64,000 nucleotides of DNA from a virus (UHGV-0229283), one strand, 5' to 3'. Shown: positions 13,274 to 27,069, counted from the first letter of the stretch. Program-made: numbers and translations. Notes: generated by a model from the letters alone, not told the origin.

Positions 13274-15337
13274 TTAAATTACATAAATTGCATGTTTTGC
13301 GTATTGCAATCCTATCGGGGCGAAAGGCGTATCATCGTCAGGACCAAGAGTAGGGACTGGTGTCCTATCAAGATCGATGGTTGGCTTATACTCAGGTGCC
13401 GGAACATTTACCTTTCCAACCGGAGTTTCCAGAGAGAGTTGATGGATCAGACTCTGAGGACGAAGCATAACTTCACCATTAAGCTTGAACATCCCATCTT
13501 CCCATTCCCAGCCGGAAGCATCGGAGAACTGCCCGTTGTCATCCATAACCATTGTATCAGCGATACCCAGTTTTTTGTGTGGGCGGTTCTTCAGCACCAC
13601 GATACGTACACGCCCACGGGAGCGGTCAGGAAGCTCTTCTGGTTCAACACCCAGAACCACCCATGAGAGTTGTTCAAGGGCCGCAGAACCGCGCAGGTCT
13701 TCTTTACGGACCGGATACCAGAACGGCAATAGATTCCCATCTTTATCTTTCGGAAGCTGAAGTTCTTTACGCTTCATGTGGCTGATTGATAAGATGAAAA
13801 CATCGTACTTCTTACAGAAAGCTGCCAGCTCGGTCATGATGTTATCAAGGTCTCGACGTTCGTTGTCGGACTTAAGACCAGAGATTACCATTGACAGGTG
13901 ATCGAGGATGATCCATTTACAACCATCAAGGAACACCATCTGCTTAAGTTTCTGAATAAGCTGGTCTGTCGGGATAGAACCGAAGTGATCAAAGATCTTA
14001 ATCTTATCTTCCCGAATCCAGCGTTGGTGAATCTCAAGGTGTTGCTCTTCGGTTAAGAACTGCTCCGGGTCAGCAACAAATGCCTTAGGGTCCACCTTCA
14101 GCTCTTCAGCATACAAGCTGTTTACAGACTCTTCTTCATCCTCTTCCAGACGGATGATGGCTACTTTCTCACTCTCGGTCCAGCCATCTAGGCGGGGAAT
14201 TGACATATCACGAAGATAATCAATGATCGCGTATTCAATCTTACGAGAGATTGTAGACTTACCACCACCAGACGGGCCTGTCAATGTCCAAAGCTCACCA
14301 GTACGGGGGCCACGGGTCAGGTTATATAGGCCGGGTAGCCCTGGTAATGGAACACCATCTTTTTTCTTCTTGCGAAGATTCTCAATGGTAATATCCTTAA
14401 GACCGATAAGCTTATCAGGAACATAGCGATCGTCTGCTTTGGTAAACATTGCATAAAGCTCGCGTACCTTACCTGCATCATACATGTCACGAATGTCTTT
14501 AAAGCCATCCGGGTCATTACGCTCGTTAGGATATCGCACAACGTAAATATTTTCTGACAGCAGGAAGCTAGCGACATCGTCGGTTGCTTCTTTACCTTTC
14601 TTTATTTTCTTTTCTTTTTCTAATGCTGTGGCTTCGTCGTTATCAAAGCCCAAGACTACCTTCTCATAACTGCGAATGAACTTCTCGTTGTTTGCGAAAG
14701 TATCAACAGCGTTTGCAGTACCACAGTTTAATCCAACATAGGGTAGTGTCGGAAGACCTCCAATGTCCTCGTCGTTCTGAATATGACGGATACCTTTTAA
14801 GATGCTATCCGCCCAGTCTTTAACGCCTTTACTGGCCTTTGGACTGGTGGACATAGCCTTAACCATCTCATACGCTGCCTGCCATGCGGCGCATACGTCA
14901 CCTTCACCTTCCACGATATTGATCTGCTTACGACCAACACCCATAGAGGCTTCATGCTGCCCGAAGAACTGAGATGATGCCTTCACAGCACCAACAGTTG
15001 AAAAGTGTCCTGTCTTTTCCTTCTGTAACGTCCAGTCACGTTTCTTGAATCCCGTCAGTTTCCCATACTTATCATAATAAGGCAAGTATGTTGCTACCGG
15101 GGTGATACCATCCGCCGGGGATACCGCAGAACGGATCTTAAAATACTGTGCTGCTTCAAGAGAGAGACTCATTTCGGGAACAGCCATGATGCGGGTGCCA
15201 GACAGCACTGATTCCAGGGTCTCTTCTACTCGATTGTTACTATAACTCAACTTGCCTCCGCGATTACTTCCAAAACCTGCTCTTGGGTTTTCATTGCCAC
15301 CTTTCCTATAGGCCGCCCAATCTGGTCCATTACCCAT
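13274..15337 (-). CDS. T7 gp4-like bifunctional DNA primase-helicase (TOPRIM plus DnaB-like SF4)
   Basis: 687 aa. Walker A TGPSGGGKSTIS. FILSISHMKR helicase motif. IVEGEGD and FDNDEA are TOPRIM acidic motifs. Confidence 0.85.
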   Translation of the reverse strand: MGNGPDWAAYRKGGNENPRAGFGSNRGGKLSYSNNRVEETLESVLSGTRIMAVPEMSLSLEAAQYFKIRSAVSPADGITPVATYLPYYDKYGKLTGFKKRDWTLQKEKTGHFSTVGAVKASSQFFGQHEASMGVGRKQINIVEGEGDVCAAWQAAYEMVKAMSTSPKASKGVKDWADSILKGIRHIQNDEDIGGLPTLPYVGLNCGTANAVDTFANNEKFIRSYEKVVLGFDNDEATALEKEKKIKKGKEATDDVASFLLSENIYVVRYPNERNDPDGFKDIRDMYDAGKVRELYAMFTKADDRYVPDKLIGLKDITIENLRKKKKDGVPLPGLPGLYNLTRGPRTGELWTLTGPSGGGKSTISRKIEYAIIDYLRDMSIPRLDGWTESEKVAIIRLEEDEEESVNSLYAEELKVDPKAFVADPEQFLTEEQHLEIHQRWIREDKIKIFDHFGSIPTDQLIQKLKQMVFLDGCKWIILDHLSMVISGLKSDNERRDLDNIMTELAAFCKKYDVFILSISHMKRKELQLPKDKDGNLLPFWYPVRKEDLRGSAALEQLSWVVLGVEPEELPDRSRGRVRIVVLKNRPHKKLGIADTMVMDDNGQFSDASGWEWEDGMFKLNGEVMLRPQSLIHQLSLETPVGKVNVPAPEYKPTIDLDRTPVPTLGPDDDTPFAPIGLQYAKHAIYVI

Positions 15338-15896
15338 TACATCTCCTATTACGAACCTCTCTAATAGCAGGCCCTATTATGGTCATCATCTCTTCTACAG
15401 TAAAGAAATCACTTCTAGCCTTGTTGCAGACAGAACAACACGGCAGGACGTTTTCAACAGAGTGCCCAATAGAATTGTCGATACGATCAAGACCAACATC
15501 CCCCTTATCACCACAGTAGATACAAGGGCTTCGTATAATCCTTCTAACATCTTCAAGGGTAAGATCAGAAACTCTACCCTTTATCTTGTCGAGACGAGAA
15601 TAGTTATTGAACAACACCTTATCACGGTTAGACTCCCGATATCTTTTTCCCCTTTCCCTCCTTTTCTTGAGGTACTCAATATCATTTCTTGATGCTAAGT
15701 GCTTCTCTTTCTGGTCTTTATACTGGCACGCCCTGCAAATGGAGGATACCCTATTACCACCTTTTGTATTTATCCTGAAGTTCTTATGGGTACATTCCTT
15801 TTCCTCCCCACATTTCTTACAGACCTGCATTCCACCGTATTCCCTTTTTGAAGAAGATTCGGTGAACTTTCCAAGATCGTCTCTTTCACGAGTCAC
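15330..15896 (-). CDS. HNH endonuclease
   Basis: C-terminal GLDRIDNSIGHSVENVLPCCSVCNKAR is a canonical HNH motif. N-terminal zinc-ribbon cysteines are present. Confidence 0.7.
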   Translation of the reverse strand: MTRERDDLGKFTESSSKREYGGMQVCKKCGEEKECTHKNFRINTKGGNRVSSICRACQYKDQKEKHLASRNDIEYLKKRRERGKRYRESNRDKVLFNNYSRLDKIKGRVSDLTLEDVRRIIRSPCIYCGDKGDVGLDRIDNSIGHSVENVLPCCSVCNKARSDFFTVEEMMTIIGPAIREVRNRRCNG

Positions 15897-21270: not shown

Positions 21271-23258
21271 TATTTCTCTCCTTTGCTATCAATAAATTTA
21301 CGATACTCAGCCACCTCTGGTGAGTTAAAATGCTCCATCGAGATGTGCTTCAGTAACGGGTAACGTTCTTTTACCTTGTTAATCAGGCTTTTCCCAACAC
21401 GAATACGTCCATTGACGATTCTCTTCGCAGTTCTTTCTGCACTATAATAACCTTTAACATGGTAAAGGGTACTAGCCATATTAACCTTTTCCTTGTATTC
21501 AGGATCTTTGACAACCTCTACACCTATTCCCTTTAAGTCGTCCAAGAGAGAGCGATACTCACGCTGTCTGGTTAACTGATTAAGATGATAATCCAACAGG
21601 TTTGAACTTGCAACCTTATAAAGGTCGTCCTGTGTAATCATCCTAACATCATCATCCAGCCAACTCACTCGGTTTAAAGGTACGATGTATAATTTATCAT
21701 CAATACCAAGATCTGACAAGAAGGTCTCCGGTTGATGACGGTTAGAAAGGTACGCCGTAGACCCAAGGTCACAAGTCCCTCGTGCCTGACCACCAGAATA
21801 GATCATGGCATATTTGATATCATCAAATTCCGCACGGGAGATACGTGTTTTCCTAATAGCTCCACTCTGCTCAATGATCCATACTGGATGCCCTGGTTCA
21901 TACAGGCTATAGCCGCCATACTTTTTATCCGATTTCGATGCTGGACGCTTTTCCAAATCCGACAGCTTATGGATCATTCCCGCAAAGAATGGATTATCAC
22001 ACATTTGTGCCACACCAAGATTGTCCGTCAGATAGACGGCCTTGCCTGTTACATCAAACAACTGATTACATTTACTTCTAACCAGCTTATTGTCGTCGTT
22101 GTATACAAGATGGTAACCATTCATCATATCCGCATATGAATAGTCTTTGTCAGTTCTACGCTTCTCCCCGTGGCCGTTGTAAGTTACACATTCCTTGACG
22201 CTTACAGAGTCAACATAATCTCTGAACAATTCCGCAATGTATTTTGCGCCGTATTTTGTAGCAAACCACCCGCCAACTCGCTTCATATACTCCAGAACAT
22301 CCGCAAGTTTTGGAAGCTTACGGAGTTCATGGTAAATTTCTTCACCACGGCGATCAAGGGCCGTCTGAACGAATGTCTTAAGGCGCTCTTCGAAGCCACG
22401 GTCATTCTTGCCCTCGATAGTCCATTCACGTCCCGGATTGACATCGCAATCCCCGATTGGGATGGACACCATCATCAGGGGCCATTCAGGGTTATTGCTC
22501 AGAAACTTTGATTTGTACGGCTGTTGTCCCATAACCACAACGCTATCAGCATTGTTAGATACCGACGAATACATTTCCAGCATCCAACCAGATTCTTCAT
22601 CTTTGAACGTATACTGCACCGGGTAGGTACGGTCTCGAATAGATGAAGTCACAAATGGGTCATTGATCTCGTAAGGGAACTTAGCATAACGCAGGCAACT
22701 GATAATTGCACGGCGGTATTTCTCAGTCTCTGCCGGGTCAACGTTGAATTTGATTTCAACACCATTTTCTTCTATGGTTTTTGACTCGTGGAGAGGCACA
22801 ACCTCAGGTATCCCTTGGTCTTTATGAACAGAGTACACAGTTTTAGTACCATCTTTGATGGAGATGACACTGAACATGTCCGTAACGGTGAACGGGGCCT
22901 TGGAACCAATACCTTTCGCACCGATCAGATCGTTGGATTCACGTTTGGTGGACGACCCCAGCATCATGAAGGTCTGGGTAACCATGTCAAAGTCCATCCC
23001 AATACCACCATCCTTGACAGAATACCACGGTTCTAGGTCAGTTGGGGAGTGGATGATAATCGGTTTATCCCGGCATCCGGCTTCTGTGTGTGCATCTACC
23101 GCATTGAACAGGGGTTCACGACAGGCAGCAAGGATCTTGTCCTCATAAATACCATCGATCAAGATACTGAAAGTTTCAGCATTAATCGCGATACCAGCCT
23201 GATAGCGTTTGACGTTGGTACTAACTTCTACCTTCTTCTCATTACGCTCGATTATCAT
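21270..23258 (-). CDS. GHKL-superfamily ATPase (Hsp90/MutL/MORC-like Bergerat fold N-terminus), 662 aa
   Basis: The N-box EPLFNAVDA and the G1 box VKDGGIGMD resemble Hsp90 (ELISNASDA / DTGIGM). The G2 box GAKGIGSKAPF is present. The remainder is unassigned. Confidence 0.6.
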   Translation of the reverse strand: MIIERNEKKVEVSTNVKRYQAGIAINAETFSILIDGIYEDKILAACREPLFNAVDAHTEAGCRDKPIIIHSPTDLEPWYSVKDGGIGMDFDMVTQTFMMLGSSTKRESNDLIGAKGIGSKAPFTVTDMFSVISIKDGTKTVYSVHKDQGIPEVVPLHESKTIEENGVEIKFNVDPAETEKYRRAIISCLRYAKFPYEINDPFVTSSIRDRTYPVQYTFKDEESGWMLEMYSSVSNNADSVVVMGQQPYKSKFLSNNPEWPLMMVSIPIGDCDVNPGREWTIEGKNDRGFEERLKTFVQTALDRRGEEIYHELRKLPKLADVLEYMKRVGGWFATKYGAKYIAELFRDYVDSVSVKECVTYNGHGEKRRTDKDYSYADMMNGYHLVYNDDNKLVRSKCNQLFDVTGKAVYLTDNLGVAQMCDNPFFAGMIHKLSDLEKRPASKSDKKYGGYSLYEPGHPVWIIEQSGAIRKTRISRAEFDDIKYAMIYSGGQARGTCDLGSTAYLSNRHQPETFLSDLGIDDKLYIVPLNRVSWLDDDVRMITQDDLYKVASSNLLDYHLNQLTRQREYRSLLDDLKGIGVEVVKDPEYKEKVNMASTLYHVKGYYSAERTAKRIVNGRIRVGKSLINKVKERYPLLKHISMEHFNSPEVAEYRKFIDSKGEK

Positions 23259-23427
23259 CTACTTCTCCTACTTTTTGCAGTTATTTATATTTAGTCTAAA
23301 GGCCGCTGTAGCCATACCTATTGCGTATGCTCCACAAATTTGTTCCCAATACATGGGCTGTGACAGTGACAATATCACACACAGAGGGGTAATGCAAACA
23401 AATATTACTAAGAATTTCTTCATGAGT

Positions 23428-23985
23428 TCATGCCCCCTGAGAATCTTCTTTCTCTTTATAATATATATGGTTATCGATCCTGACTGTGCGTAGCATGGCC
23501 TTTGTCCAGTAGGGTTTTACTTTTCGTGAATGGTAGTGGGTTGCTCCATGTGTTATGTCCAGAGCATCGTAGACGATCCTGTTTTGTTTATGAATCTTGA
23601 TCAGAACTTTTGCAAACTCTTGTGCCTTCTCCCAGCGATCCTTTTCATAGACTTTAAACGTTGTTCCTGAAGATGTCCAGGAGAATTGTCCGGGCTGGTA
23701 GACGATCTTTTTTACTGTTCCAGGGTACTTATCGTTATCCTTACGATTCAAAGTTACGAATGCGATCGACATTAACCCGGAATCACTCTCTCCACGAGCT
23801 TCTTTGTACATGTTGCAGGCTAAAATGTTTACCACTGTATCATCTTTTTTGCACAGATGAATTACCTTGGGCTTCTTTGCGTTGTCTTTAGCCAGTACAG
23901 GTGTGGTGGCTAGAGAAAACACACAGGCGGTTGCCAGAATCAGATTTTTCAATTTCAAATTTACACTCCAAATTAAAAGCCCCAT
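23428..23985 (-). CDS. SleB-like cell wall hydrolase (Hydrolase_2) with signal peptide; candidate endolysin
   Basis: CNMYKEARGESDSGLMSIAFVTLNRKD...YQPGQFSW is the SleB/CwlJ signature. The N-terminus is hydrophobic. The annotated ATG lies inside a hairpin, so the true start may be the downstream TTG (MKLKNLILATAC...). Confidence 0.65.
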   Translation of the reverse strand: MGLLIWSVNLKLKNLILATACVFSLATTPVLAKDNAKKPKVIHLCKKDDTVVNILACNMYKEARGESDSGLMSIAFVTLNRKDNDKYPGTVKKIVYQPGQFSWTSSGTTFKVYEKDRWEKAQEFAKVLIKIHKQNRIVYDALDITHGATHYHSRKVKPYWTKAMLRTVRIDNHIYYKEKEDSQGA

Positions 23986-25300
23986 TGCGGGGCTAAGATG
24001 CTATAATTTTACTTATGGGTCAACCCCTTATTAAGGATATTTTTTGCAGCATTAATGTCTGCATTCTCAGTATGACCGCAAGAAATACATAAAAATTTAG
24101 CTTGTGTTTTCCTGTTTTCTTTTGATACATACCCACATCCAGAGCACGTCTGAGAGGTATATGCTGGATTAACAATCATTAACTCACTTCCGTACCTGAT
24201 CGTTTTGTAAGCTAACTGCATACGTACCGAGTATAGACTCATATTTAGAATCTCTCGGTTAAGCCCTGTTTTAGCCTTCACATTTTTACCAGGCTGTTCA
24301 ATCGTTCCTTTTGACGATTTCGTCATATTGGAAACTTTCAAATCTTCCAGAACAATTTTGTAGGATTTTGTAGCCAACTTTTTAGTAAGTTTGTGGCAGG
24401 CGTCTTGGCGAATACTCCCTTGTTTGGACTTGCGTACAGTGATCATTTCGCCAAGCTTTTTGTATCTTGCGCTGCCTTTCTGGCATTTGGCTTGCTTACG
24501 TTGAAGAATACGAATACGTTCTTCAAGAGCCTTTAACGATTCTTTAGGATACTCCTCATGCCATGCTGTTTCACTATCTGAATCATAGCATGTTGCATAC
24601 TGTGCAACACCTAAGTCAACACCAACACACATTTCCCTTTTATTAGAGATCTGATAATAATCTTCGTCAGGTATTTCAAAGATGAAAGCAACATACCAGT
24701 CACCAGCAGTTTTGCTGAACGTGGTATTCATAAGTTTCCCATTCAGGATACGTGCAGGTATCTTATCTCCCAGTTTCATCTTTCCAAGTCTGTTGTGGAT
24801 GATGTAAGCCCCAACGTCATCAAGATTCTTTTCCTTTTTGAAGTCTGTATTGCTTAATTTAAAACCTTTCCTGCGATGCTTTGATTGAAACTTGGGTCTG
24901 CCTCCAAGCTTTTTGAAGCATCGCTGCCATGCCTCTTTGAGGTCATACTTTATAGCAAGCTGGCCAACACTACCGGGTATCCCATTTAACCATGTGTGGA
25001 TTCCTGAGCCTAACATTACTCCAGATTTTGTTGGCTTTTTAAAACCGAGAGGGTATTTACCTTGGTTAAAAAATTTATCGTATTCATTTATTTTTGCCAA
25101 TTTCCATTTTTCATCAGGAGATAGGGTTTCTTGGTCTATGAAACATAACCCTAATGCATAATTAAAAGCATAACGTCTGGCGTTGCTCCAATGAAGAAGA
25201 GTGCTGTTTTGGCGATTATTTGTACCAACTTTTGTTTTAAAACCTACCATCATGATAATCATCTACCTGCGCTGTTAAAGTTCATTCCGACAGTACCACA
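23975..25300 (-). mobile_element. IS200/IS605-family tnpB-only element (boundaries approximate)
   Basis: A TnpB gene with no tnpA. A stable hairpin (AGCCCCGCAATGGGGCT) sits at its 3' end where the omega RNA / right end would lie. Exact ends were not determined. Confidence 0.4.
24009..25262 (-). CDS. tnpB: TnpB (IS605 OrfB-family RNA-guided endonuclease)
   Basis: 417 aa. RuvC-I VGVDLGV, RuvC-II IVLEDLKVSNM, zinc finger CSGCG...CISCGH and RuvC-III NADINAAKNI are all present. Confidence 0.85.
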   Translation of the reverse strand: MIIMMVGFKTKVGTNNRQNSTLLHWSNARRYAFNYALGLCFIDQETLSPDEKWKLAKINEYDKFFNQGKYPLGFKKPTKSGVMLGSGIHTWLNGIPGSVGQLAIKYDLKEAWQRCFKKLGGRPKFQSKHRRKGFKLSNTDFKKEKNLDDVGAYIIHNRLGKMKLGDKIPARILNGKLMNTTFSKTAGDWYVAFIFEIPDEDYYQISNKREMCVGVDLGVAQYATCYDSDSETAWHEEYPKESLKALEERIRILQRKQAKCQKGSARYKKLGEMITVRKSKQGSIRQDACHKLTKKLATKSYKIVLEDLKVSNMTKSSKGTIEQPGKNVKAKTGLNREILNMSLYSVRMQLAYKTIRYGSELMIVNPAYTSQTCSGCGYVSKENRKTQAKFLCISCGHTENADINAAKNILNKGLTHK

Positions 25301-25347
25301 CTACGTGAGGAACGTGATAGAATGGAGAGTTCGTGCATACAGTCCAG

Positions 25348-25495
25348 AGGTTATCCCCACATATTTTGGGGGCACCTGATATCTGTGATACGCTAGGAGG
25401 ACTACATCGGTTTATCCCACATTGTGGGGAACACGGGCAGCGATTTGTAGCGATCCGGGTTGGCCTCGGTTTATCCCCACGCATGTGGGGAACAC
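25348..25495 (-). CRISPR. orphan mini CRISPR array: 3 type I-E-like repeats (29, 27, 28 nt) and 2 spacers of exactly 32 bp; no cas genes
   Basis: Read on the minus strand, R3 at 25467..25495 is GTGTTCCCCACATGCGTGGGGATAAACCG. R2 at 25408..25434 is GTGTTCCCCACAATGTGGGATAAACCG. R1 at 25348..25375 is degenerate. The spacers are 25435..25466 and 25376..25407. Repeat flanks GTGTTCCCC and GGGGATAAACCG and the 6-4-6 hairpin geometry match the enterobacterial I-E repeat consensus (from memory: GTGTTCCCCGCGCCAGCGGGGATAAACCG). Confidence 0.7.
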
Positions 25496-25786
25496 TCTAA
25501 CCGTAAACATATGGCAACCTTAGTGTTTTAAGCCCACTTAAAATCTACCGAGTTGTGTTCCCAAATTTGTAGAGATAGGAGCAAAGCTCCTGAAGGACTT
25601 ATGCAACTAAGTTGCAGCCCCCTTCTTCCTTCATAGACTCGCTAATGCTTATCTCCAGAAGCATAACTTCGGCGTTAACCACACCTAGAGGATTGGCTCC
25701 CAACAAGAGACACTATACAGTGTCTCTTAATTGGAGTCAACAATTATTTTCTAAGAATATCCCCTGAAACTGTTTTCACATTACCT

Positions 25787-25978
25787 TCAATAAACTTCTG
25801 TTCTGGTCTCACCACTTTTAATGATCCTCGCTTTTTGGGCATGATAGACAAACTGTTTGTTCTCTTTAACAAACTTTTTGCCCTGTTCTTCGTCTTCGAA
25901 AATCAAGGTATCACACTCGGTGAAAGAATGTCCAGGCCTTTTTTCAACAGACCGCGTTGTGGCTACAATGAGGGACAT
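25787..25978 (-). CDS. hypothetical protein (63 aa) between the RNA ligase and the array leader
   Basis: Its start is coupled to the RNA ligase stop. Confidence 0.35.
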   Translation of the reverse strand: MSLIVATTRSVEKRPGHSFTECDTLIFEDEEQGKKFVKENKQFVYHAQKARIIKSGETRTEVY

Positions 25979-27069
25979 TAGCCCTCCTCACTCAGACGAG
26001 TCATGTACCATGCACGAGCTTTGTTGCTGATAAACTTGCCAACATCTTTCATGGTCATGGAGCTGGCTTCCAGAACATCACCCTCTTCCTTGTTGATGTC
26101 TCGGTTAATCCACCCAATGAATTCACCGATCTTAGTCTTGTCAAGACCGACTTCGCTGACACCCTGCTCAAGACGTGCTTCCGTCACAGCGTACTCAACG
26201 AACTCACGCATACTTGCGAGGCGTTCTGGGTCGATTGCCGCCAGGGTCTTAACTTTGGATACAGAGTGTTTATCACCTTTGACTTTAAACCACAGGCCAG
26301 AGATTTTAGAAAGCTCAGGATCTTTTGGAGACCAGACAATGCCTTCACCGATACCTTCTACGCCAAAGAACTTACCTGCCGGGCATTTGTTTTCCACTTC
26401 ACGAGTCAGTTCTGCCAGGTCATTCTGGACAAGTTCCGGCTCATTGAATGGGATATTAGCCATCCAGTAACCGAAGTCAAGGATACTGTAGATACGAGCA
26501 TCCGGCAATCCAATTCCAAACTGGAACGTTGGTGGTAGCCAGTTGAGGGTATCCGTTGCCTCATCCCGTCCCACAGCCACACGGAAGATAGCAAAGAACG
26601 GCTCTACTTCAGTGATGGCAACACCTTTCTGAATGCCACGCCCAGCCCATTCACCAGCAATTTCAACCGGGAACTGGAACTCGACGTCATTGACTTCACA
26701 CAGGTATTTAACCTGTGAAAGCAACTCTGCGGTGTCTTTTCGAGACATGAAGGCCGCGAAGCCATTGTTATCGTCGCCTACAGTCACGACACGCTCTTTG
26801 GACTGGAAGACAACTTCATCCTCAGAGTGGAATACCACACTGCCATTAGTGCCGTGAAGCTTAACCGTACCGATGTACGGGATCAGGTACGCTTCCGGTG
26901 GCAACACCTTTCGCTTGATATTACCCTCTTCATCAATACCGTCGAACGTCAGTTTATCATGCATGGTGCGGATAACCTGACGGAACTGTGCGGTGCTTGG
27001 GTATTTAATTGGTTTTGTCAATTTTATTCTCCTCAAATAATTTGCTAATGTGTCCGCCAGAAAGTTCAA
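25978..27069 (-). CDS. Rnl2-like RNA ligase (ATP-dependent nucleotidyltransferase)
   Basis: GTVKLHGTNGSV matches the KxDG/KIHGTN motif I of T4 Rnl2. Length is 363 aa. Confidence 0.7.
   Translation of the reverse strand: MNFLADTLANYLRRIKLTKPIKYPSTAQFRQVIRTMHDKLTFDGIDEEGNIKRKVLPPEAYLIPYIGTVKLHGTNGSVVFHSEDEVVFQSKERVVTVGDDNNGFAAFMSRKDTAELLSQVKYLCEVNDVEFQFPVEIAGEWAGRGIQKGVAITEVEPFFAIFRVAVGRDEATDTLNWLPPTFQFGIGLPDARIYSILDFGYWMANIPFNEPELVQNDLAELTREVENKCPAGKFFGVEGIGEGIVWSPKDPELSKISGLWFKVKGDKHSVSKVKTLAAIDPERLASMREFVEYAVTEARLEQGVSEVGLDKTKIGEFIGWINRDINKEEGDVLEASSMTMKDVGKFISNKARAWYMTRLSEEG

Follow-up and report, generated by a model that had tools for sequence, protein, structure and literature searches.

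In a 64,000-nucleotide (nt) stretch of the virus UHGV-0229283 (hereafter the window; all coordinates are window positions), a gene for a TnpB-type RuvC nuclease stands behind a miniature type I-E CRISPR array. The window comes from a virulent Klebsiella myovirus (Vequintavirinae, Mydovirus-like), and in its flanks it shares about 96% identity with Mydovirus KB57 and some 30 relatives. Array and gene belong to a cassette of 1.7 kb, present once in the 64 kb, which we read as a probable minimal type V-like CRISPR system. The order is promoter, structured RNA, anti-repeat, minimal I-E leader, array and tnpB, and all cassette features lie on the minus strand. They are listed here together with the two junctions.

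25744-25786, minus strand: left junction, the final ~14 codons that remain of a KB57_244-like gene, KE23-like version (comparison with KB57 and KE23)
25712-25740, minus strand: predicted sigma-70-type promoter (-35 TTGACT at 25740-25735, 17-nt spacer, -10 TATAGT at 25717-25712)
25577-25704, minus strand: structured scaffold of ~130 nt, like a trans-activating CRISPR RNA (tracrRNA) or omega RNA (RNAalifold covariation)
25555-25576, minus strand: anti-repeat ATCTCTAC-AAATTT-GGGAACAC, complementary, with G-U pairs, to the repeat halves GTGTTCCC and GTGGGGAT
25496-25550, minus strand: minimal type I-E leader (CGGTAGATTTT...GGTTAGA), from its likeness to native leaders of bacterial I-E arrays
25347-25495, minus strand: mini CRISPR array of three repeats and two spacers (R1-S1-R2-S2-R3)
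25495-25467, minus strand: repeat R1, GTGTTCCCCACATGCGTGGGGATAAACCG
25466-25435, minus strand: spacer S1, AGGCCAACCCGGATCGCTACAAATCGCTGCCC, 32 nt
25434-25408, minus strand: repeat R2, 27 nt
25407-25376, minus strand: spacer S2, ATGTAGTCCTCCTAGCGTATCACAGATATCAG, 32 nt
25375-25347, minus strand: repeat R3, degenerate
25263-25346, minus strand: linker between array and tnpB, 84 nt, holding the ribosome-binding site AGGTAG
25262-24009, minus strand: tnpB, TnpB-type RuvC nuclease gene and candidate type V effector, open reading frame (ORF) of 417 amino acids (aa), stop codon at 24011-24009
23978-23994, minus strand: intrinsic terminator hairpin AGCCCCGCAATGGGGCT followed by a T-run (terminator scan), at the right junction and outside the cassette

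Nuclease gene, array and scaffold RNA

Judged by its sequence, the tnpB gene is complete and its catalytic residues are intact, as an earlier note on this DNA had proposed. The product matches Pfam OrfB_IS605 (58 bits), Cas12f1-like_TNB (74 bits) and NCBIfam guided_TnpB (207 bits), and the RuvC residues D216, E306 and D402 and a CxxC...CxxC zinc finger are conserved in an alignment of 26 sequences. The true start is likely the ATG at 25253, which gives a protein of 414 aa beginning with MMVGFKT as in the homologues. The AlphaFold2 model (pLDDT 85.9) has ISDra2 TnpB as its top Foldseek match (TM 0.68; 8H1J), and of the solved structures RdCas12n (9J09; E = 3e-37, 132 bits, residues 169-411 only) is closest in sequence. 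Note that the NUC lobe of 9J09 is unmodelled, which limits the Foldseek comparison with RdCas12n. By sequence, ISDra2 TnpB matches at E = 1e-17, and the TnpB and Cas12f entries of the PDB match at 67-74 bits. Among the relatives, P0011 (51% identical) has VLADP in place of VLEDL at RuvC-II, with loss of the glutamate, and may be a nuclease-dead derivative. The bacterial relatives (P0015-P0025) have an insert of ~35 aa with an additional CxxC...CxxC at alignment columns ~310-350, which the phage versions lack.

The protein thus has the split RuvC domain and zinc finger of the IS200/IS605 family, and the marks of an IS200/IS605 element (tnpA, or left and right transposon ends (LE/RE) with subterminal hairpins, together with multiple copies) were not found. 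No Y1 or serine transposase gene (tnpA) was detected within ~3 kb, in agreement with the earlier note; the large flanking ORFs encode an endolysin, an rIIA-like ATPase and an RNA ligase, and the small intervening ORFs had no Pfam match or were left unscanned. No LE/RE ends occur at the cassette borders, which are the promoter and the last tnpB codons.

The array has the 29-nt consensus repeat, the 32-nt spacers and the proximal leader motif of type I-E, and identical repeats build long arrays in the genomes of Erwinia, Pantoea, Izhakiella and Serratia; on these sequence grounds it is a real I-E-type array and no chance match. The Cascade, Cas3 and Cas1-Cas2 genes to which a type I-E array is linked are not found adjoining the cassette in the window, and among its relatives only a Vibrio locus has Cas1e-Cas2e. 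The array is co-oriented with tnpB and upstream of it, as had been noted, at a distance of 84 nt; in the alignment this linker is conserved with the contig L005 and not with the phages KE23 and KP13-16. One G is missing from the second repeat (GTGGG-ATAAACCG) in the Escherichia coli-type phage cassettes examined (window 25408-25434; L001, L004 and L005), with differing spacers. This common deletion is hard to square with simple acquisition at the leader end.

A conserved non-coding stretch of about 210 nt (~25704-25496) lies between promoter and array. Only its proximal ~55-57 nt resemble native leaders (Erwinia, Pantoea, Serratia, Izhakiella and others with identical repeats), and a blastn search with the leader against 5,426 E. 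coli genomes gave no match. Native I-E leaders with identical repeats have neither scaffold nor anti-repeat, and their loci have no nuclease; the scaffold, being absent from those bacterial leaders, is ruled out as a piece of a native I-E leader. The promoter is the best promoter-like site of the region (10 of 12 positions matched) and is conserved at the left border of the cassettes in KE23, KP13-16, L005, L018, L183 and L185. A near-perfect palindrome, AAGAGACACTgtatAGTGTCTCTT (25728-25705; AAGAGACACT-gtat-AGTGTCTCTT), overlaps its -10 hexamer, is conserved in other cassettes and from its sequence is a possible operator site.

The scaffold comprises five helices in all, with stem 1 formed by 25685-25681 and 25675-25671 and a terminal hairpin AGGAGC-TTT-GCTCCT; an Rfam scan of window positions 23000-27000 (E<=1) returned no family. 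RNAalifold on 15 units gave 19 pairs with 93.7% of the cells paired and compensatory changes in 15 of the 19. The observed value was not attained in any of 500 shuffles, and in slid controls 41-53% were paired. The loop of stem 1 (GGTT, 25680-25677) is complementary to the AACC at the 3' end of the repeat, and the same complementarity to the four spacer-proximal repeat nucleotides was seen in 17 of 17 units examined. Five combinations of loop and repeat end occur, namely GGTT/AACC (the common one), AGTT/AACT in L188, GATT/AATC in L021, GAAA/TTTC in L018 and GGTC/GACC in Photobacterium angustum, and each loop is complementary solely to its own repeat end.

The anti-repeat follows the repeat in a similar way. 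In each of the seven E. coli-type units RNAduplex put it at one and the same site (-23 to -27 kcal/mol), with z = -2.1 to -3.9 against shuffled repeats. Its sequence changes with the repeat class: it is GTGG..GAAGAT for ATCTTC..CCAC repeats in a Klebsiella pneumoniae-type unit, AATCCCAGTGCACAG in Vibrio and ACCCATGAGGAA in L190, and ATACAC versus ATAGAC matches GTGTAT versus GTCTAT repeats. Stem 1, the later helices and the duplex of anti-repeat and R1 all appear in the single-sequence minimum-free-energy fold of the window transcript. Base-pairing of a tracrRNA with the repeat, as expected of type V, is thus present in silico only; the pairing is, by analogy, the guide-RNA architecture and pseudoknot geometry reported for RdCas12n and TnpB.

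Relatives in phages and bacteria

The cassette was found in at least eight phage loci, in two named subfamilies and at unrelated genomic sites, with TnpB identities to the window protein from 94% down to 47%. The loci (L-numbers denote individual loci) are as follows.

L005, contig from IMG/VR: TnpB 94%
KE23, Salmonella phage, Seunavirus: TnpB 89%, locus as in the window
L183, Logan assembly: TnpB 85%
KP13-16, Klebsiella phage, Stephanstirmvirinae: TnpB 76%, unrelated site in a tRNA gene region
L184, Logan assembly: TnpB 76%
L185-187, Logan assemblies: TnpB 73%
L018, Logan assembly: TnpB 67%
L188, Logan assembly: TnpB 57%
L021/22, ENA and Logan assemblies: TnpB 47%

In every phage with a close TnpB homologue a scaffold-plus-repeat unit adjoins the gene, with L019 as a partial exception, and about 30 related Mydovirus genomes have neither array nor tnpB; no related phage with one of the two parts alone, which the earlier note had named as the sign of independent neighbours, was thus seen among them. 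Its suggestion that array and gene belong together is therefore supported (for L019 in part), and its alternative of the array as cargo in the left end of an IS605 element falls with the absence of LE/RE ends and tnpA. Several loci stack further scaffold-leader-array units 3' of tnpB or in tandem, with the repeat classes ...GGGGATAAACCG, ...GGGGGTGTTTC and ...GGGGATGAACCG. In L018, L103, L184, L185, L188, L189, L190, L230 and L232 the same scaffold follows tnpB directly, at the omega-RNA position, and in L019 a more diverged scaffold takes that place.

Related arrangements also occur in bacteria. In Vibrio agarivorans (L191, BLAT01000001.1) a TnpB-like gene (40% identity) is followed by scaffold, leader, an array of 10 repeats with 32-nt spacers, Cas1e (370 bits) and Cas2e, and there is no Cascade or Cas3 within 10 kb. 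Photobacterium angustum has nuclease, scaffold and a 9-repeat array in a defence island with BstA, a reverse transcriptase and integrases, and a metagenomic contig has nuclease, scaffold and a 5-repeat array in a defence island with CoiA-like and McrBC-like genes; neither has cas genes within 6-8 kb. The L190 locus adjoins a Cas3-like gene. Judged from the gene content, the nuclease is the sole candidate effector for the I-E-like-repeat arrays at these bacterial loci. In the bacterial relatives the scaffold is in the omega-RNA position directly 5' of the leader, and in the stand-alone bacterial arrays the Cas6e-type hairpin is degraded and the scaffold-pairing repeat ends are kept. The earlier note had taken the I-E repeats as an argument against their direct use by TnpB, which is contradicted by the Cascade-less V. 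agarivorans locus and the covariation of scaffold and repeat.

The association of effector and array across lineages that is expected of type V thus extends over eight phage and five bacterial or metagenomic loci (identity 40-94%). Alignment-based locus searches of IMG/VR and JGI metagenomes gave almost exclusively distant TnpBs (<=40%), which lack such arrays, plus one match of 49% (L103). No insertion of a nuclease cassette was found within the 8 kb examined at 32 bacterial loci with same-repeat I-E arrays. Among distant TnpB loci of IMG/VR and JGI (~30-35% identity; L011, L017, L050, L051, L057, L060, L106 and L161), tandem or CRISPR-like repeats occur at a distance of up to ~1 kb. In L191 a second, larger TnpB-like gene of 506 aa, accompanied by a minus-strand array of a different repeat (13470-13820 and 14129-15649; repeat GTTGCAGCTATACGCGTAGGGATGTGTT), flanks the same Cas1e-Cas2e, so that one adaptation module appears to serve two miniature effectors in V. 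agarivorans.

Spacers, targets and cassette borders

The spacers differ in every cassette, including L005 and L183, which have the exact insertion junction of the window. Targets were identified for three of them. S1 of the window matches at 100% the K. pneumoniae plasmid NZ_CP122577.1 (L229; circular, 6,535 bp), with AAG directly adjacent on the 5' side; near matches are found in plasmids of Klebsiella oxytoca and Leclercia and in an IMG/VR contig. The protospacer is within a 50-aa ORF upstream of a D5/P4-type primase-helicase gene, and the plasmid also encodes a serine recombinase and an AlpA-like helix-turn-helix protein, a gene set that recalls integrative elements or small satellites of phages. 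The first spacer of L005 matches, with three mismatches distal to the protospacer-adjacent motif (PAM), two temperate-phage-like viral contigs with genes for a UmuD-like protein and a tail fibre, again with 5' AAG. Spacer S2 of KP13-16 matches at 100% a 120-kb K. pneumoniae phage-plasmid, with the 5' flank GGG. AAG is thus the PAM at two of the three spacers with identified targets. AAG is the PAM of both acquisition and interference in type I-E. It is also the preferred PAM of AcCas12n.

Searches of phages, plasmids and IMG/VR gave no target for window S2. Searches of the cassette spacers against the 64-kb window (<=7 mismatches) gave no self-match, only chance matches with 6-7 mismatches of the 20-nt spacer L021_S2, and searches against the INPHARED phages gave self-matches only, plus one false spacer. 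The candidate spacer L185d_S1 was rejected, being flanking phage DNA.

L187 (1595-1690) equals L185 (3960-3995) plus one leader-proximal repeat-spacer (AGTTGCCGGACTCTCTAAACACAACACTTGAA), and the two contigs, from one study, are otherwise identical. From the sequences, this difference is a signature of polarised, ongoing uptake of spacers by an array on a phage. The last repeat of L185 is also the exact end of its cassette (~3990), and the adjoining phage DNA is found, preceded by AAG, in the cassette-free phage FKP3 (L224 2498-2533). The junction looks like a spacer that recombined with its own protospacer, a possible route of the cassette into new phage genomes.

At the borders, homology between cassettes starts at the -35 hexamer of the promoter and ends ~10 nt before the tnpB stop codon (alignment with KP13-16). 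In KB57-like phages two small genes (243 and 244) occupy the position of the cassette. In the window the remnant of gene 244 is joined to the KB57_242 homologue at its end, with the remainder of genes 243 and 244 deleted; the same junction occurs in L005 and L183. Because the remnant of gene 244 resembles the version of the Salmonella phage KE23, the sequence indicates that the cassette entered through recombination with a KE23-like phage.

At the right junction, the hairpin AGCCCCGCAATGGGGCT begins 14 nt downstream of the tnpB stop codon. The earlier note had it overlap the tnpB 3' end at the place of an omega RNA, and neither position nor role was borne out: the same hairpin stands between gene 244 and the endolysin gene in KB57, which has neither tnpB nor array, and it is also present in KE23, L005 and L183. 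Because KB57 has it without tnpB, the hairpin is ruled out as omega RNA, and on this comparison it is the phage's own terminator, a native sequence. Nor does the window have an omega RNA at the tnpB 3' end that takes the flanking DNA as guide. As the earlier note observed, the loop of the hairpin contains an ATG (23985), at which the longest endolysin ORF starts; as the start of that gene it probably does not hold, since the RefSeq orthologue of KB57 uses an in-frame TTG (window 23958-23956), preceded by the ribosome-binding site GGAG. The endolysin thus probably starts at TTG 23958, giving a shorter product of 176 aa. Genes for HNH homing endonucleases variably adjoin the endolysin gene in BIS47 (L003 2150-2752), KNP2, NDO71 and KE23 (L001 1996-2625), and neither the window nor KB57 has one. 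The neighbourhood of the endolysin gene is a hotspot for insertions of a selfish or accessory kind.

Interpretation and relation to known systems

The sequence comparisons suggest, with a probability of about 0.65, that the region is a self-contained, adaptation-less minimal type V-like (Cas12n-like) CRISPR cassette on a virulent Klebsiella phage. From one promoter, a transcript would arise that contains the scaffold RNA, the anti-repeat, the minimal I-E leader, the two spacers and the nuclease mRNA. The scaffold would serve as the tracrRNA or omega-RNA body, with the anti-repeat pairing with the repeat and the stem-1 loop GGUU forming a pseudoknot with the AACC directly 5' of each spacer. The resulting guide RNA would load the 414-417-aa TnpB-type RuvC nuclease, as in Cas12n and TnpB, and we infer that the nuclease would then cut spacer-matching DNA flanked by a 5' A-rich (AAG) motif. 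New spacers would probably be installed in trans by the Cas1e-Cas2e of the infected host, because the repeats and the 55-nt leader are genuinely of type I-E; such adaptation in trans would account for the AAG PAMs, the 32-nt spacers, the fast turnover of spacers and the differing classes of I-E repeats. Because the known targets are resident mobile elements, the cassette likely plays its role in conflict between such elements, against a small plasmid or satellite-like element, a phage-plasmid and temperate phages.

Several observations weigh against this interpretation. R2 and R3 are imperfect in the window, and the scaffold there is upstream of tnpB and not in the omega-RNA position. The pairing of the anti-repeat is weak in GATGAACCG-type units, with z ~0 in L184dn, L185dn, L188_2, L021 and L019, and the units from closely related phages are non-independent observations. 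L019 (57% TnpB identity) lacks the upstream unit and has a single repeat ~240 nt downstream. The similarity to Cas12n is confined to the C-terminal half of the protein and the overall fold is that of a plain TnpB. The KP13-16 S2 protospacer is flanked by GGG and not AAG; AAG itself fits host Cascade equally, and the repeats of the phage cassettes keep perfect Cas6e-type hairpins, so the CRISPR RNAs (crRNAs) may be used by the host I-E system instead or as well.

Exclusive use by the host is the main rival, in which Cas6e would process the array transcript and Cascade-Cas3 destroy the targets, with some other cause for the linkage of TnpB and scaffold, such as a role of theirs in homing or maintenance of the cassette under omega-RNA guidance. 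Canonical I-E features are seen in the repeats, the 32-nt spacers, the proximal leader and the AAG PAMs alike, the repeat class differs between cassettes as host I-E classes do, and mini-arrays of viruses that rely on Cas proteins of the host have been described (PMC11656645, PMC6858448). This leaves unexplained, however, why the scaffold loop and the anti-repeat covary with the repeat and why bacterial loci of nuclease, scaffold and array, with or without Cas1e-Cas2e, have no Cascade or Cas3 within 6-10 kb, and the stand-alone bacterial arrays, with a degraded Cas6e-type hairpin yet with the scaffold-pairing ends kept, also speak against it; we regard it as unlikely.

The other two rivals fit poorly. 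That the repeats act as RNA decoys or regulators (RNA anti-CRISPRs, Racr, or crRNA-like RNAs), which would titrate or misdirect host Cas6e and Cascade and thereby shield the phage from I-E immunity of the host, the spacers being irrelevant, seems very improbable to us. R2 and R3 are defective, the one-G deletion in R2 is common to all E. coli-type phage units, and phage single repeat units and mini-arrays are described as able to inhibit host CRISPR (review PMC11656645; see also bioRxiv 10.1101/2024.10.29.618823). RNA anti-CRISPRs are marked by repeats without target-matching spacers, whereas here the 32-nt spacers match real mobile elements (plasmids and phages) with AAG PAMs, turn over fast and are added at the leader end, which indicates selection on spacer content; the linkage to nuclease and scaffold is also left unexplained. 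We give slightly less credence still to an ordinary tnpB-only IS200/IS605 remnant that neighbours the mini-array by chance, or that homes into I-E leaders by means of its omega-RNA guide, the association being positional. TnpB is canonical by Pfam, NCBIfam and fold, and the bacterial scaffold is at the omega-RNA position directly 5' of the leader; against this stand the lack of tnpA and LE/RE, the single copy, a linkage that is kept in proteins as little as 47% identical and at unrelated insertion sites, the occurrence of scaffold-plus-array units in tandem and to either side of the gene, and the absence of such an insertion within the examined 8 kb at any of the 32 bacterial same-repeat loci. 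Moreover, a fixed guide matching the leader needs no loop or anti-repeat that tracks the repeat.

Of the known systems, the cassette resembles Cas12n (type V-N, formerly V-U4/C2c9; RdCas12n and AcCas12n) in its miniature TnpB-like RuvC effector (Cas12n being reported as a monomer), in the predicted long tracrRNA derived from the omega-RNA region (~170 nt in Cas12n) with a pseudoknot between nucleotides immediately 5' of the guide and the stem-1 region, in the lack of its own adaptation genes and perhaps in the A-rich PAMs (AAN/AAG in Cas12n, AAG at two of three protospacers here). The tracrRNA of RdCas12n has 170 nt, its pseudoknot involves repeat nucleotides -4 to -2, and its PAMs are AAN/AAG (PMC12216341). 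Cas12n/C2c9 has been noted to have PAMs in common with type I systems of the same cell (bioRxiv 10.1101/2024.04.09.587696), and it has been proposed that the two also share the acquisition of spacers (PMC12216341 and the same preprint). Unlike the actinobacterial Cas12n of ~500-540 aa, however, the cassette protein has 414-417 aa without REC expansion and is found in enterobacterial phages, and the sequence likeness is limited to the RuvC/TNB half. Its tracr-like RNA is upstream and in cis with the array, it has bona fide I-E repeats with a minimal leader, and some loci have several scaffold-array units of different repeat classes.

The protein is like TnpB of the ISDra2 type in size, domain order, catalytic residues and fold, and in the relatives the scaffold likewise begins close to or at the gene's 3' end, with the guide 3' of the scaffold and a pseudoknot; unlike that type, there is no tnpA, no transposon ends and no multicopy distribution, and the guide would consist of exchangeable 32-nt CRISPR spacers with a leader and not of flanking DNA. 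With viral mini-arrays (Sulfolobus viruses) and phage CRISPR-Cas (type I-F of ICP1; Cas-phi, Cas-lambda, the Cas12p 'hacker' and Cas12r) it shares one to three spacers, host-type repeats and mobile-element targets, and with the phage-encoded Cas12 systems a compact effector encoded by the phage. Classical mini-arrays, however, have no effector of their own, and the known phage Cas12 effectors have 500-800 aa and their own repeat families and are unrelated at the family level. The window TnpB matches Cas12p and LaTranC in the PDB at E = 4.5e-5 and 8e-6, and identity with the Cas12p 'hacker', LaTranC or Cas-delta was rejected on size and sequence. Like TranC and the type V-U intermediates, it would represent a TnpB lineage that is on its way to becoming a CRISPR effector and has its guide RNA split in two (tracr and crRNA). 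Their arrays are thought to have been duplicated from omega-RNA segments, whereas here repeats and leader appear to have been taken from type I-E, with an omega-derived scaffold that evolved to pair with them.

Type V arose from TnpB about 50 times (PMC10691335, PMC12669027). The kind of system is therefore already known, and the bacterial branch of the clade may be catalogued among V-U6 to V-U45. The combination of a 414-aa effector on virulent enterobacterial phages, an upstream tracr-like RNA in cis, I-E repeats with a minimal leader and stacked units that differ in repeat class was not found in the literature searched, the V-U6 to V-U45 tables being outside the search. Altae-Tran et al. 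2023 leave open whether type V arrays arose de novo or through capture of existing arrays, and capture of a foreign array as a route to type V has been considered before and not documented. We tentatively propose, at somewhat less than even odds, that a TnpB captured a foreign type I-E repeat-leader module and that its omega RNA was remoulded, in loop and anti-repeat, to pair with it. On this view the phages would carry a plug-in effector of 1.7 kb, borrowing from any I-E host the acquisition of spacers and perhaps the processing of crRNAs, with units swapped or stacked to match the classes of the hosts, and the same crRNAs might arm both nuclease and Cascade.

If the interpretation as a type V-like cassette is true, a natural and very small (~1.7 kb, 414-aa effector) CRISPR system at the transition from TnpB to Cas12 exists on virulent enterobacterial phages. 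The question of de novo origin versus capture of type V arrays would become directly testable, with a concrete case of a TnpB that adopted a foreign array, and the effector would be a type V-like one dependent on type I-E adaptation, which would explain the shared AAG PAMs. The protein with its ~170-nt RNA is a candidate compact editor with an A-rich PAM. Virulent phages of Klebsiella, Salmonella and related hosts would carry programmable weapons against plasmids, phage-plasmids and possibly satellites, which would be relevant to phage therapy and plasmid ecology.

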